In this document: positions 1-5,061 of the stretch, piece after piece | How positions within the stretch are numbered: the stretch's first letter is position 1 | Layout of the letters: every line of letters begins with the position of its first letter | Source of the DNA: a virus | DNA length: 5,061 nt | Strand: one strand, 5' to 3' | IMG/VR virus record: IMGVR_UViG_3300045988_011379 | Location: 1-5,061 of that record | The notes under the pieces: generated by a model | Told to the model about the DNA's origin: nothing | Database searches by the model: none | What the model saw: only the letters and a program-made list of their open reading frames with translations | Program-made: the position numbers and the translations under genes

Positions 1-119
1 ATTTTTTTAAAAAGTGAGGTTTTTATGTCTCGTCGTCGTCATAAGCTTTCTCGTAAGGCATCTAAGCGTATTTTCCGTAAAGGTGCATCACGTACGAAGA
101 CTTTGAATACTCGCGCTAC
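1..119. repeat. Wrap-around redundancy. Positions 1-119 are an exact copy of 4943-5061, so the window covers a circular (or concatemeric) 4942-nt genome plus 119 nt.
   Basis: Base-by-base comparison of both ends of the window found 119/119 identical. The offset is 4942 (for example, ATG 25 matches ATG 4967). Confidence 0.95.
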
Positions 120-147
120 GCCTCTGCGTGGCGGTTTCCGCATTTAA
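25..147 (+). CDS. VP8: Small, highly basic DNA-binding/packaging protein of 40 aa (MSRRRHKLSRKASKRIFRKGASRTKTLNTRATPLRGGFRI). It is the functional analogue of phiX174 J and gokushovirus ORF8/VP8.
   Basis: ATG at 25 is preceded by GAGGT (16-20) with a 4-nt spacer, and the TAA stop is at 145-147. The protein has 10 Arg and 5 Lys and no acidic residue. It is too short for the supplied ORF track. Its position after VP2 matches the gokushovirus layout. Confidence 0.8.
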   Translation: MSRRRHKLSRKASKRIFRKGASRTKTLNTRATPLRGGFRI

Positions 148-221
148 GCGTTAACCCTTGTTACCTGCCGCGGTCGTCGTAGTTATCATTTTGAACATCT
201 TAGTTTCATTTGGATCTTGCT

Positions 222-452
222 ATGGCTACTGCGGCTTTTCGTTTGACTCTTAAAGATTTTGGCGTCTGCTGGCTTATCCCTGGCGAAGAAAGCTATGTTG
301 GTCGTCGCAAGTTGGTGACCTGGACGCTTTATCGCGATCGTCCTTGGGTCGCTCTTTGTTCATTTCAGGTTCGTTTTCGCTCTTCTCGTGAGACGATTCT
401 TCGTGAGCTTCATATTACGTGTCTTGAAAAATGCCTTGCTTTCACCCGATAA
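222..452 (+). CDS. Hypothetical 76-aa protein (MATAAFRLTLKDFGVCWLIPGEESYVGRRKLVTWTLYRDRPWVALCSFQVRFRSSRETILRELHITCLEKCLAFTR). I do not recognise a family.
   Basis: The frame is open from 204, with the first ATG at 222 (the track starts at TTG 210). By hand count about half the codons end in T, and CGT/CTT are preferred for Arg/Leu, as in the recognised genes. There is no clear SD. The 3' end overlaps the VP4 start by 22 nt in another frame. Confidence 0.5.
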   Translation: MATAAFRLTLKDFGVCWLIPGEESYVGRRKLVTWTLYRDRPWVALCSFQVRFRSSRETILRELHITCLEKCLAFTR

Positions 453-1348
453 CGGCTTATCGACTCGCCGGATCTAAGACTAAAGACGGTATTCGCAACG
501 CTGTAACCTTTGATCCTTCGAAGGCTATTCCGTTTTCTGAGTTTAAGATTCCTTGCGGTCAATGCATTGGCTGCCGTCTTTCTAAGTCTCGTGAATGGGC
601 CGCTCGATGCGTTGTTGAAGCTAAGTCACATAAGAACAACATGTTTCTTACGTTGACTTATGACGATGCTCACTTGCCTGAAGATGGCTCACTTCATTAC
701 GAGCATTTTCAGCTGTTCATGAAGCGTATGCGTAAATACTTCATGAGCCGTTTTGGTCAACAGCTTCGCTTTTTCATGTGTGGTGAGTATGGCGATAAGC
801 TTGGTCGTCCTCACTATCACGCCATAATTTTTGGCGTTACTTTTGTAGATAAACAGCTCTGGTCGATTCGTCGAGGCAATAACTTATATCGTAGCCGTAC
901 GCTTGAGAAACTTTGGCCGTATGGTTTTAGTTCGATTGGTTCAGTCAACTTTGAGACTGCCGCTTATGTCGCTCGTTATGTTACGAAGAAAATTACAGGT
1001 CCTTTGAAGCTTGAGCATTACGACGGTAAGGTTGCTGAATTTTGTCATTGCTCGCTTAAACCTGGCATTGGTCATGACTTTTGTGAAAAGTACATGACTG
1101 ATATTTATACTAATGATCGACTTATTCTTAGCGAGAAGATTATGATGAATCCTCCAGCTTATTTTGATAAGTTGTTGGAGCGTTCTGATATTGTTCGTTT
1201 TGAAGAGATTAAGCGTCTTCGCGAAAAGCGAGGTCGTGATTTTGAAGATACTGGCGAAGCTTCGCCGCAACGTCTCTCAGTTCGTGAACGCGTCCAAGAA
1301 CTGAAAGCCGCTAAACTCAGACGCGTTATGGAAGAGAATCAATCATGA
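431..1348 (+). CDS. VP4: Replication initiation protein (rolling-circle HUH endonuclease), gokushovirus VP4-type, 305 aa.
   Basis: The N-terminus MPCFHPITAY is canonical. Rolling-circle Rep motifs are present: FLTLTY (motif 1), RPHYHAIIFG (HUH motif 2) and AAYVARYVTKK (catalytic Tyr motif 3). No SD is visible upstream of 431. Confidence 0.95.
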   Translation: MPCFHPITAYRLAGSKTKDGIRNAVTFDPSKAIPFSEFKIPCGQCIGCRLSKSREWAARCVVEAKSHKNNMFLTLTYDDAHLPEDGSLHYEHFQLFMKRMRKYFMSRFGQQLRFFMCGEYGDKLGRPHYHAIIFGVTFVDKQLWSIRRGNNLYRSRTLEKLWPYGFSSIGSVNFETAAYVARYVTKKITGPLKLEHYDGKVAEFCHCSLKPGIGHDFCEKYMTDIYTNDRLILSEKIMMNPPAYFDKLLERSDIVRFEEIKRLREKRGRDFEDTGEASPQRLSVRERVQELKAAKLRRVMEENQS

Positions 1349-1635
1349 TCCTTAAAGTTTTTTCCGTTTTCGACTCTAAACTTCAGGTTTTTAATACGCC
1401 GTTCTTCAGCCGTTCTGCAGCTGATGCATCTCGGTCTTTCTCTGATCTCGTTCGTGATAGTCGCACTACTGTTGGTCAGCATCCCGACGATTTCTTTCTT
1501 TATGAGATCGGTCAGTACTCTGATGAGACTGGAGAGCTTGTAGCCTCTGCTCCGACACAGATTGCCGCTGCGACTGCTTTTGTATCTACGATTGAGGACC
1601 TTAAAGCGGCCGCGCCTGCTAAGGCCGAAGTCTAA
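1345..1635 (+). CDS. VP5: Gokushovirus VP5-type non-structural protein, 96 aa.
   Basis: The ATG overlaps the VP4 stop as ATGA (1345-1348), and GGAAGAG lies at 1330-1336. The N-terminal pattern (VFSVFDSK..VFNTPFF...A.R.F..........HP.DF.LYEIG.....TGEL) matches the conserved VP5 family as I recall it. Confidence 0.85.
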   Translation: MILKVFSVFDSKLQVFNTPFFSRSAADASRSFSDLVRDSRTTVGQHPDDFFLYEIGQYSDETGELVASAPTQIAAATAFVSTIEDLKAAAPAKAEV

Positions 1636-1713: not shown

Positions 1714-2157
1714 ATGAAGTTCAGAATTAATCACACAAATGCTACCGCTGAAGGCATTGTCTTTACTGAACCGTCGATGACTCAACAGCACTTTAAAGAT
1801 GAGACCATGATCGACAATATCTTGCAAAAGTATGCTGAGACAGGCTTTTTGACTGATCCTTTTTCCCCGAAGCGCCCAATTCAGTTTGGTGACTTTTCTG
1901 ACGTCACAGATTTTCAGACTGCGCAGAATGCTGTTGCTCGTGCAACTGAATACTTTGAAAGCCTTCCGTCTCGTGTTCGCTCGTCTTTCAATAATTCTCC
2001 ATCTGAGTTTCTTCAGGCGCTCAACGATCCTGAGCAAAGAAGTAAGCTTGAAGATCTTGGCTTTGTTGCTCCTGAAGAGTCTAAAGCTCCTGAGTCAACT
2101 CCTCAGCCGACTCCATCTGCCGATCCTAAACCGTCTTCTTCTGACAACAACGGGTAA
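1714..2157 (+). CDS. VP3: Internal scaffolding protein, gokushovirus VP3-type, 147 aa.
   Basis: ATG 1714 is preceded by GGAG (1705-1708). The GTG at 1687 used by the track lies inside the terminator hairpin and is unlikely to be the start. The pattern SMTQQHFKDE..I..IL.KY..TG ... GDFS.V.DFQ.A.N ... F.SLPS.VR..F.N.P.EFL is typical of the Chlamydia-phage-type scaffold family. Confidence 0.85.
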   Translation: MKFRINHTNATAEGIVFTEPSMTQQHFKDETMIDNILQKYAETGFLTDPFSPKRPIQFGDFSDVTDFQTAQNAVARATEYFESLPSRVRSSFNNSPSEFLQALNDPEQRSKLEDLGFVAPEESKAPESTPQPTPSADPKPSSSDNNG

Positions 2158-2253: not shown

Positions 2254-2340
2254 TGCGCACGGGTACATACCGGAACCAGTTACGTACTTGATGTAACTGG
2301 TTCCGGTGACACCCCGATGCACGTGCGGGTACCCAACGCA
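2254..2340 (+). promoter_or_regulatory. G+C-rich structured element: a perfect 15-bp hairpin (2269-2307) flanked by direct repeats and palindromes. It is a candidate replication origin (viral-strand nick site and/or complementary-strand origin).
   Basis: ACCGGAACCAGTTAC (2269-2283) pairs with GTAACTGGTTCCGGT (2293-2307), with loop GTACTTGAT. CGGGTAC is repeated at 2260-2266 and 2326-2332. Palindromes are TGCGCA (2254-2259), GCACGTGC (2319-2326) and GGGTACCC (2327-2334). An outer pairing is possible between 2254-2266 and 2329-2340. Confidence 0.5.
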
Positions 2341-2502: not shown

Positions 2503-4167
2503 ATGTCTTCTGTTAATCGTTCTACTCAGCATCTGTTCTCTCAGATTCCTTCGACTCAGATTCCTCGATCGGTCTTTGATCGTTCTCATGGATATAAGAC
2601 AACTTTTAATTCCGGTTTTCTTGTACCTTTTTATGTCGACGAAGTTCTTCCAGGCGATAGCTTTAAGTTGACTGCTACGCTTTTTGCTCGTCTGGCTACT
2701 CCTATTGTCCCTTTTATGGACAATCTGTACTTAGAGACTTTCTTTTTCTTTGTTCCTAATCGCCTTGTTTGGGACAACTGGCAGAAGTTCAATGGTGAAC
2801 AGAAGAATCCAAGTGATCCAACGGACTTTTTGATTCCTACTGTTTCTGGCACGAATGTTGAGAATCAAACTCTGTGGGACTATTTCGGTCTTCCGACGAA
2901 TGTCAATGCAGCATTGAAAGTTAATGCGCTTCCTTTCCGCGCTTACAATTTGATTTTCAATGAGTGGTTTAGAGACGAGAATCTTCAGGATTCTTTGAAA
3001 GTTCCGACTAATGACGGTCCTGACAATTTGTCTGACTACAACTTAGTTCGCCGTGGCAAGCGTCATGACTACTTCACGTCATGTTTGCCGTGGCCGCAAA
3101 AGGGACCTGGCGTGGAGATTTCGCTTGGTGGCCGTGCGAAGGTTACTGGCGATATCACTTTGGCAGCTCAGTTCGGTTCGTATCATGTTGATCACGGTAT
3201 CGGTTCTGTTTCCAATTGGTCTGTCGCTTATCCTGTTAATTACACTGATCCTGTCACTTTAGGTTCGAAGGATCAGCCGTGGTCCAATGTTATTAAATCC
3301 TTTCCTGTGAAACTTACTGCAGCTAACCCTTCGGATCCAGGTAGAATTTCTTATTATGCTGGTCGTGGTTTAGTTTTACATGACAATATGTTCGCTGATT
3401 TGTCTAGTGCTACTCCGATTTCCATCAACGACCTTCGTCAAGCTTTTCAGGTTCAAAAGCTTTATGAACGCGATGCTCGCGGAGGAACGCGATATACAGA
3501 AATTTTGCGTTCGCATTTCGGCGTGATCTCGCCTGATGCTCGTCTGCAGCGTCCTGAGTATCTTGGCGGTTCGTCTGCTCGTATTTTGATTAATCCTGTT
3601 CAGCAGACTTCAGCTACTAATGAGACGACGCCTCAAGGCAATTTGGCTGCTTACGGTGTAGCCTCAGACAGCTTCCATGGCTTCTCGAAGTCCTTTGTCG
3701 AGCATGGCTACGTCTTTGGCTTTGTGAATGTTCGTGCTGACCTTACCTATCAGCAAGGTCTGAATCGCATGTGGTCGCGTCAGAGTCGTTTTGACTTCTA
3801 TTGGCCTGTGTTGGCGCATCTTGGCGAACAAGCTGTTTTGAATAAAGAGATTTACGCCCAAGGCACTGCTGATGACGATAAGGTTTTTGGTTATCAGGAA
3901 CGTTATGCAGAGTATCGTTATTACCCTGGACAGATTACTGGCAAGTTCCGTTCGACTGATCCTCAGCCGCTTGATTCTTGGCATCTTGCTCAGAAGTTTG
4001 CTTCGTTGCCGACATTGTCTTCGCAATTCATTCAGGATGATCCGCCCGTGAAGCGTGTAATTGCCGTTCAGGATGAGCCGCAATTCTTGTTTGACTCGTA
4101 TATTCGTTTGAAGTGTGCTCGTCCGATGCCTGTGTATTCAGTGCCCGGCTTGGTTGATCACTTCTAA
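2503..4167 (+). CDS. VP1: Major capsid protein, gokushovirus VP1 (Microviridae F-type jelly roll), 554 aa.
   Basis: Conserved blocks are present: FSQIPS..I.RS.FDRSH..KTTF..G.L.P..VDEVLPGD.F, KRHDYFTS.LPWPQKG, INDLR.AF..QK..ERDARGGTRY.E....HFGV and RPEYLGG. ATG 2503 is preferred over the track's TTG 2491. The TAA stop is at 4165-4167. Confidence 0.97.
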   Translation: MSSVNRSTQHLFSQIPSTQIPRSVFDRSHGYKTTFNSGFLVPFYVDEVLPGDSFKLTATLFARLATPIVPFMDNLYLETFFFFVPNRLVWDNWQKFNGEQKNPSDPTDFLIPTVSGTNVENQTLWDYFGLPTNVNAALKVNALPFRAYNLIFNEWFRDENLQDSLKVPTNDGPDNLSDYNLVRRGKRHDYFTSCLPWPQKGPGVEISLGGRAKVTGDITLAAQFGSYHVDHGIGSVSNWSVAYPVNYTDPVTLGSKDQPWSNVIKSFPVKLTAANPSDPGRISYYAGRGLVLHDNMFADLSSATPISINDLRQAFQVQKLYERDARGGTRYTEILRSHFGVISPDARLQRPEYLGGSSARILINPVQQTSATNETTPQGNLAAYGVASDSFHGFSKSFVEHGYVFGFVNVRADLTYQQGLNRMWSRQSRFDFYWPVLAHLGEQAVLNKEIYAQGTADDDKVFGYQERYAEYRYYPGQITGKFRSTDPQPLDSWHLAQKFASLPTLSSQFIQDDPPVKRVIAVQDEPQFLFDSYIRLKCARPMPVYSVPGLVDHF

Positions 4168-4240: not shown

Positions 4241-4864
4241 ATGGGATTTCCTTGGTCAGACGCAATTGGCGGAGCCCTTAATTTAGGTAGCTCTGCTGCT
4301 AGTGCTTATTTTTCGTGGAAGCATCAGAAAGAAGCGATGCAAAATCGGCACCAATGGGAAGTTGCTGATATGCGTAAAGCGGGTCTTAACCCGATCCTGT
4401 CGGCTACCGGCGGTTCTGGTGCTTCTGGCAACGCACCTATGATTGTTGCTCCTGATCTCGCTGGAGCGATGAAGTCTGGTGCCGAGACTGAGACACAGCA
4501 TTCTGAAAAGAATTTGAAGGACGCTCTTGAGAAACAGACTTATGTTCAGAATTCGGCTTTGCAAGCTGACGCTGGTTTGAAGCGTGCTCAGGCTGTTGCT
4601 TCTGATAGTTCGTCTAATTTGATGTGGTCTCAAACGAAAGGTCAAGAGATTGCTAATAAAATTCAAGAAGAGAATTTAAAGCAAGCAAAGTTTATGACCC
4701 AAAATTCTGCTATTGCTTCTGAGAAGCAGAAGTTAGTTTTTGATTATATGAAAGAGCACTCTAGCGCTTGGAAGTTTGGACAGTGGATGAATTTGATTAA
4801 TCCTTTTAATTCGACTGCGCCGCTTACAAATTCCGCCGTTGGCGCCGCTCATCTTGCGAAATGA
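4241..4864 (+). CDS. VP2: Minor capsid / DNA pilot protein, gokushovirus VP2-type, 207 aa.
   Basis: The motif QNRHQWEVADMRKAGLNPILSA corresponds to the conserved VP2 block (..ERMSNTAYQRA..DMKKAGLNP.LA in Chlamydia phages, from memory). The downstream half is coiled-coil-like and rich in Q, K and A. A weak SD, AGGA, lies at 4230-4233. Confidence 0.9.
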   Translation: MGFPWSDAIGGALNLGSSAASAYFSWKHQKEAMQNRHQWEVADMRKAGLNPILSATGGSGASGNAPMIVAPDLAGAMKSGAETETQHSEKNLKDALEKQTYVQNSALQADAGLKRAQAVASDSSSNLMWSQTKGQEIANKIQEENLKQAKFMTQNSAIASEKQKLVFDYMKEHSSAWKFGQWMNLINPFNSTAPLTNSAVGAAHLAK

Positions 4865-4959
4865 TAGATGCGATTTTAAAGTTCGTTAATGTTTTGCTGA
4901 ACTCTGGTTCGGCGATTTGGGAGGCCTTCAAGGCCGTTAAGAATTTTTTTAAAAAGTGA
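4861..4959 (+). CDS. Possible 32-aa cationic amphipathic peptide (MIDAILKFVNVLLNSGSAIWEAFKAVKNFFKK).
   Basis: The ATG overlaps the VP2 stop as ATGA (4861-4864). The ORF exactly fills the VP2-VP8 gap, and its TGA (4957-4959) sits inside the VP8 SD GTGAGG. It has no SD of its own. On the circle it ends at position 17 of the window. Confidence 0.35.
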   Translation: MIDAILKFVNVLLNSGSAIWEAFKAVKNFFKK

Positions 4960-5061
4960 GGTTTTTATGTCTCGTCGTCGTCATAAGCTTTCTCGTAAGG
5001 CATCTAAGCGTATTTTCCGTAAAGGTGCATCACGTACGAAGACTTTGAATACTCGCGCTAC
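4943..5061. repeat. Second copy of the wrap-around segment, identical to 1-119.
   Basis: 119/119 identity to the window start. It contains the same SD and the first 95 nt of the VP8 gene (ATG 4967), truncated by the window edge. This is the same gene seen twice, not a paralogue. Confidence 0.95.

Follow-up and report, generated by a model that had tools for sequence, protein, structure and literature searches.

Our analyses suggest that an intergenic hairpin of this gokushovirus genome, together with the short box that follows it (positions 2269-2313, plus strand), is most probably the origin of viral-strand replication, nicked between G2290 and A2291, and that it constitutes a hairpin-embedded, intergenic variant of the phiX174 origin. 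The first-pass annotation of this DNA had put the hairpin forward as a candidate Rep origin, a proposal now supported by the conservation of the element across the family, the covariation of its stem, a layout shared with phiX174, the motifs of the VP4 protein and a link between the element and the T-rich strand. What we call the window is the whole stretch of DNA analysed, 5,061 nucleotides in length; it represents a circular gokushovirus genome of 4,942 nt with an exact terminal redundancy of 119 nt (1-119 being identical to 4943-5061). Its plus strand is T-rich (T 32.8%, A 22.2%) and carries all of the genes, which are arranged as follows.

25-147, plus strand: small basic J-like ORF
210-452, plus strand: ORF of 80 codons with a TTG start, overlapping the start of VP4
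431-1348, plus strand: VP4 (Rep; HUH rolling-circle initiator), assigned from Pfam and motifs
1345-1635, plus strand: VP5
1714-2157, plus strand: VP3 (scaffold)
2503-4167, plus strand: VP1 (capsid)
4241-4864, plus strand: VP2

The 80-codon ORF at 210-452 had no match in a Pfam search. Close relatives of the window are six human-associated gokushoviruses from GenBank, which are 85-90% identical to it. The gene order, VP1-VP2-ORF8-VP4-VP5-VP3-element, is a permutation of the common gokushovirus order VP1-VP2-VP3-element-(ORF8)-VP4-VP5 and is also found in gokushovirus prophages of E. coli (L269, 2880-7166); in every gene order seen, the element comes directly after VP3. In the window it is thus located in the VP3-VP1 intergenic region, of about 345-346 nt, and comprises the following parts.

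2269-2283, plus strand: 5' arm ACCGGAACCAGTTAC of a perfect 15-bp inverted repeat
2284-2292, plus strand: loop or spacer of 9 nt, GTACTTGAT, that is, G followed by the nick-site motif TACTTGAT
2293-2307, plus strand: 3' arm GTAACTGGTTCCGGT, pairing perfectly with the 5' arm
2307-2313, plus strand: TGACACC box directly 3' of the stem, a candidate duplex binding site for VP4

This inverted repeat is the longest perfect one in the window, the sole longer pair (I1) being 80% complementary, and its loop exposes the heptamer ACTTGAT at 2286-2292, which occurs as a single copy; both sequence and coordinates had been given correctly at first pass. The extent then assigned to the hairpin, 2269-2307, holds for the inverted repeat itself, but the conserved unit continues to the end of the TGACACC box at 2313. 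Folded as single-stranded DNA, positions 2261-2316 reach -19.3 kcal/mol (z = -6.65), and none of 200 shuffles was as stable. The minimum-energy fold contains a T2285-A2291 pair and a G2284.T2292 wobble that leave an ACTTG pentaloop, as had been proposed; this closure stands for the window, but the pentaloop does not extend across the family. The earlier caution that a 7-mer match may arise by chance was well placed, as ACTTGAT is expected 0.74 times in the window against one copy found, and at least one copy turned up in 101 of 200 shuffles. Taken on its own, the heptamer match is not above chance, and it is the conservation of the element that constitutes the real signal. A direct repeat, CGGGTAC, brackets the hairpin (2260-2266 and 2326-2332) and has no other copy in the window; its second copy is part of a palindrome, GGGTACCC (2327-2334), and the repeat, which is common to the close relatives only, might be a lineage-specific binding site.

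A sensitive blastn comparison of the whole intergenic region with 50,697 phage records aligned the six close relatives over its full length, while 16 distant microviruses, recovered from rodents, lemurs, robin, pigs, dogs, sea squirt and honeybee, matched query positions 112-156 (2269-2313 of the window) and nothing else there. Scanning viral contigs for TACTTGATGTAACT yielded 120 stretches, of which about 80 are contigs of 4-6 kb with a shared layout: a variable stem base, CAGT and a few free bases, then TACTTGATGTAACTG, the complement of the stem base and (G/C/T)TGACACC. Since this set was selected by the motif itself, a separate, unbiased sample of 80 loci was picked by VP1 homology alone. 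A covariance model, built from the first, motif-selected alignment and run on these VP1-selected loci, detected the element in most of the 80, and on the VP1 strand in all genomes but one; about 80-95% of the genomes identified by capsid homology carry one copy. In a second sample chosen by VP1, nearly all of the 63 new loci gave matches. A simple, independent rule required a perfect stem of 7 bp or more, CTTG within a loop no longer than 24 nt, and TGAC beside the stem. Among the 75 genomes that measure 4 kb or more, it recovered the element in 60, and it gave no hit in 150 shuffled strands; most of the 15 genomes missed by the rule have imperfect stems, which the covariance model finds, or carry variants (a loop with CTCTTGT or CCTTGT, or a form resembling that of Chp2, whose stem begins right after ACTTGAT), or correspond to a broken contig. 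The element is present in the Chlamydia phage Chp2, in SpV4 of Spiroplasma, in phiMH2K of Bdellovibrio and, between a VP3-like gene and VP1, in the gokushovirus prophages of E. coli, where it reads cctggcacagtgcccTACTTGATGTAACTgtgccaggtgacacc at 4501-4544 of L269. Conservation of the loop and covariation of the stem among relatives had been suggested as the first thing to verify, and the outcome is strongly positive. The idea that a chance palindrome happens to display a chance heptamer, to which the expected heptamer count alone lends some weight, is already refuted by these comparative data: the fold is far more stable than its shuffles, the rule separates real genomes from shuffled strands and the stem covaries, so that we accord practically no probability to it. 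It does count against the origin reading that no copy was found in Chp1 (L129, D00624) by the covariance model, by motif search or by a relaxed hairpin search; the origin of Chp1 may have diverged.

The stretch also appears to be difficult to assemble. A contig whose VP1 is 83% identical to that of the window (L132) is broken exactly at the hairpin-rich intergenic stretch, which is missing from it, and in another (L178) the terminal repeat is the element itself. The hairpins of this region seem to break assemblies, and surveys could therefore miss the element. A dif/XerCD recombination site was rejected as an explanation, since the E. coli prophage has the element in its interior, flanked by the VP3-like gene and VP1, and not at a prophage end.

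The family consensus consists of a covarying stem of 8-11 bp, a loop (T)ACTTG(A/T)TGTAA, and TGACACC; the loop is 14-17 nt long across the family. Counts per position were taken from 55 distinct elements of VP1-selected genomes. In all 55, the C, T, T and G of the nick motif and the T that follows the A/T position are invariant, while the base that follows the G is either A (50 elements) or T (5 elements). In the GTAACTG stretch the G, T, A, T and G are kept in 54-55 of 55 and the C in 47, while in the 3' box T, G, A and C are each found in 54 elements and the next three positions, A, C and C, in 52, 49 and 47, respectively. Of the long 5' arm in the window, the family-wide stem takes just CCAGT (2276-2280) and the bases immediately below it. 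The TTAC/GTAA pairs at the top of the window's stem are unpaired in 12-22 of 43 sequences, and the close relatives have T at 2284 and hence no G.T closure; this top pairing and its closure are particular to the lineage of the window. As the TTAC/GTAA pairs are not conserved, GTAACTG, the first 7 nt of the 3' arm, is kept as sequence and not for pairing.

Our first covariation count was biased, the elements having been fetched by an exact 14-mer and passed through a stem filter, and it was redone on the VP1-selected genomes. The covariation score then amounts to 0.426 as compared with 0.136 in shuffles (none of 500 reaches the observed value), and sliding the partners by 1-3 columns brings it down to 0.10 or less. 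Column pair 15-49 illustrates the point, with CG in 28 elements, AU in 21, GC in 4, UA in one and an unpaired combination in one. Independently, RNAalifold yields a core of 8 pairs, 7 of them with compensatory (double) changes, and a compensatory change from ACC/GGT to AAC/GTT is also seen within the long stem of close relatives (L022/L131). In 65 of 240 genomes, the GACAC box doubles as the 5' arm of another hairpin immediately next to the element (GACACC...GGTGTC), in many cases with a T run behind it; the equivalent arrangement upstream is seen in 3 of 240, chance expectation being about 3%. This second hairpin lies just 3' of the element in, for example, L018, L019, L276, L289 and L330, is absent from the window, and may be a terminator or a second protein-binding structure.

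The phiX174 viral-strand origin is annotated in GenBank J02482 (rep_origin) at 4306, cccCAACTTG|ATATTAATAACACTATAGACCAC, which agrees with the nick between G and A that the first-pass annotation had given. The 30-bp phiX174 origin contains a heptamer ACTTGAT identical to that of the window, and in both a GAC follows 15 nt after it, within GACCAC at the 3' end of the origin in phiX174 and within GACACC (2308-2313) in the window. Around the nick, CAACTTG|ATA of phiX174 and the window agree in 7 of 10 bases, the window having T for A upstream and G for A downstream. Both viruses are members of the Microviridae, and in both the nicked strand would be the packaged, T-rich one. The differences are nevertheless considerable. 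The spacer between heptamer and GAC is AT-rich in phiX174, whereas in the window it is GTAACTGGTTCCGGT, with 8 G+C in 15, and coincides with the 3' arm of the hairpin; over the element as a whole, the agreement is limited to about 14 of 29 positions. In phiX174 the origin is devoid of a hairpin and lies inside gene A, while the nick motif of the window and of its family sits in the loop of a covarying hairpin, in an intergenic position after VP3. The two origins are thus not interchangeable, which speaks against the origin reading, and the phiX174 origin has been proven experimentally whereas that of the gokushoviruses is predicted by comparison. When a 29-column weight matrix, derived from unbiased gokushovirus elements only, was run on phiX174, the known origin ranked 3rd to 6th of 10,772 positions (top 0.05%) depending on the settings; it is not the top match, and we regard this result as supportive, not decisive. 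Both this rank and the modest number of matching positions count against the origin reading.

VP4 (305 aa), the protein expected to act on the element, matches the Pfam family PF23343 (REP_ORF2-G2P) with E = 2.4e-25 and, weakly, Phage_GPA (21 bits against a cut-off of 31.4). Its motifs LTLTYDD, GRPHYHAIIFG and AAYVARYVTKK parallel TLTLADD, GRLHFHAVHF and GFYVAKYVNKK of phiX174 protein A, so that TLT, GRxH(Y/F)HA and YVA(K/R)YVxKK are common to the two proteins. The HUH and tyrosine motifs previously ascribed to VP4 are indeed present, as HYH at 128-130 and as Y179 and Y183, which correspond to Y343 and Y347 of phiX174. Judging from these motifs, we consider VP4 to be a homologue of the phiX174 protein A-type initiator with two predicted catalytic tyrosines. 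A PDB sequence search with VP4 returned no relative with a solved structure, and the Pfam search revealed no helicase family in it. The loop and the box are conserved across phages of Chlamydia, Spiroplasma, Bdellovibrio and E. coli, which suggests that the protein recognizing them is encoded by the virus and does not belong to the host machinery.

By homology with phiX174, the nick would fall between G2290 and A2291; we further infer that VP4 binds the TGACACC box and that the hairpin extrudes. We propose that replication proceeds in the following way. It would begin with VP4 attaching to the TGACACC box of the supercoiled, double-stranded replicative form, and the inverted repeat, taking the place of the AT-rich spacer of phiX174, would melt or extrude and thereby offer TACTTGAT as a single strand. 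One of the VP4 tyrosines (Y179 or Y183) would then cut G2290|A2291 and stay on the 5' phosphate of A2291, while a host polymerase would extend the 3' OH of G2290 and displace the nicked strand. After one round, the regenerated origin, present as a hairpin on the displaced strand, would be cut by the second tyrosine and the ends joined, and the resulting circular single strand would be packaged.

Such an arrangement has several counterparts among rolling-circle replicons. In IR-II of pT181, IR-I of pMV158 and the f1 plus origin, the nick lies in or beside an extrudable inverted repeat that adjoins the initiator site; their nick sequences and initiator subfamilies differ from those of the gokushovirus element. 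In the CRESS-DNA viruses (circoviruses, geminiviruses), a HUH Rep likewise acts on the loop motif of an intergenic hairpin, as is predicted here for a covarying one; however, their loop carries a nonanucleotide, e.g., TAGTATT|AC, of the NANTATTAC type, which is unrelated to the window loop GTACTTGAT, and their Rep possesses an SF3 helicase, whereas VP4 has two putative catalytic tyrosines and no SF3 helicase domain was found in it. The resemblance is one in the way of working only and implies no evolutionary membership.

The only serious rival to the viral-strand origin is a complementary-strand (minus) origin, at which host primase, the PriA primosome or RNA polymerase would start the second strand, the nick site being elsewhere. 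A stable single-stranded hairpin in the main intergenic region is what such an origin would look like: the phiX174 primosome site and the G4 minus-strand origin (genes F/G) are also intergenic hairpins on the packaged strand, and for two other microvirus clades, the hairpins conserved between their genes have been interpreted as possible origins of the minus strand (PMC9865509). However, the complementary-strand origins of phiX174 and G4 are longer, are read by host priming proteins and are without a nick sequence, whereas the gokushovirus element is short, has a loop that corresponds to the nick sequence of phiX174 and a second box spaced as in that phage, and in this resembles a plus origin. 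Moreover, the sequences of loop and 3' box are kept across unrelated hosts, although host-read signals should differ from host to host, and nothing in the intergenic region other than this hairpin matched distant microviruses, so that no further nick-site candidate that is non-coding and conserved came to light there. We consequently judge the minus-strand origin to be improbable, although a dual role as plus and minus origin is possible.

The position of the element just after VP3, at the end of the structural block, also invites its interpretation as some other cis-acting signal that involves no nicking, for instance one for the termination or attenuation of transcription, or for the binding of a protein that serves packaging or regulation (VP5, ORF8), and the GACAC box engaged in a second hairpin, often with a T run, in the 65 genomes mentioned above could be taken in the same sense. 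In the window, however, the hairpin has no T tail, being followed by GACACCCCGATG, and was not called as a terminator in a scan of 2100-2560, a region in which no sigma-70-like promoter was found either. A comparison of the entire window with the Rfam families likewise gave no match at E <= 1. Three other hairpins occupy the VP3-VP1 intergenic region.

2176-2194: hairpin
2199-2228: hairpin of 12 bp plus CTTTTTTC, the sole terminator-like site called in 2100-2560
2429-2472: hairpin followed by TTTTTT, just upstream of VP1

The intergenic region as a whole folds with z = -7.96. These three hairpins are common to the close relatives only and are candidates for the VP3 transcript end and the complementary-strand origin; the terminator-like site is thus a hairpin different from the one discussed here. 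Furthermore, conservation of an 11-nt loop sequence from host to host is not a property of terminators, and the element occurs in either orientation relative to transcription (see below). In phiX174, packaging is coupled to the origin itself, so that a packaging role would add to an origin role and not replace it. Altogether, a signal of this kind appears very unlikely, even more so than the minus-strand origin.

No microviruses are more widespread in gut and environmental viromes than the gokushoviruses. In the literature searched, no gokushovirus origin, hairpin or motif was described, although older papers on Chp2 and phiMH2K may hold an earlier mention; the main gokushovirus classification and revival papers make no mention of an origin. 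Accordingly, and within the searched literature, the phiX174-type origin is known while its hairpin-embedded, intergenic form is apparently new. A 45-nt element with a predicted nick site makes the missing gokushovirus origin directly testable, all the more so as the gokushovirus prophages of E. coli carry the element and a phage of this kind, EC6098, has already been revived experimentally (PMC7062461). The element would also provide a natural coordinate zero for the annotation of thousands of metagenomic genomes and, as a viral-strand origin, would link the hairpin-less gene A origin of phiX174 to the hairpin origins that are common in other rolling-circle replicons.

In some genomes the entire element, box included, lies on the strand opposite VP1 and VP4. 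Among 240 distinct genomes assembled after a second motif scan, a sample enriched by fetching the motif, the element is on the gene strand in 215 and inverted in 25. Inverted elements are found in L004 (577-640, MH992184), L025, L050, L094, L101, L115/L207, L120/L259, L284, L295, L298, L304, L318, L320, L323, L326, L328, L331, L332, L335, L360, L362, L363, L365 and L369, and at 4165-4229 of L185 (the same contig as L083). T-richness of third codon positions and synonymous sites is a known mark of the genome strand of single-stranded DNA phages (PMC3278643). The T/A skew, computed on the coding strand of VP1 plus VP4, differs sharply between the two orientations.

Third codon positions: median +0.47 with the element on the gene strand, -0.57 with the element inverted, p = 7e-15
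Fourfold-degenerate sites: median +0.55 on the gene strand, -0.70 inverted, p = 9e-15
Fourfold-degenerate sites, GC-matched: median +0.30 on the gene strand, -0.72 inverted, p = 7e-9

The skew is negative in 24 of the 25 inverted genomes and in a few of the gene-strand genomes; in either orientation, therefore, the T-rich strand is the one that bears the element. The G/C skew shows no difference between orientations (p = 0.77), and since it does not flip, simple C-to-T deamination does not explain the whole pattern. That the orientation of the element predicts the T-rich strand supports the view that the element marks the displaced, packaged strand, which could then be called from sequence alone. 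A complementary-strand origin would require the same tie to the T-rich, presumably packaged strand, and would also be expected to show this link; yet inverting the element alone would disable a minus origin unless the nick site had flipped too. The exception among the inverted genomes, L185, has a T/A skew of +0.58 and a box reading TGACAGG; an inverted element with normal skew weighs against the origin reading, and the case may reflect a recent inversion or faulty assembly, or be a genuine exception.

It is tempting to speculate that the orientation of the element sets the strand to be packaged and that the inverted genomes package the antisense strand, which would make them the first negative-sense members of a family invariably described as positive-sense; we consider the chances of this to be evenly balanced. 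Judged by VP1, the genomes nearest to the inverted ones are mostly of normal orientation and positive skew, and this pattern, based on VP1 similarity and not on a full tree, suggests that inversion happened more than once. Should the inverted lineages indeed package the antisense strand, strand polarity in gokushoviruses would be a switchable trait and not a fixed one.
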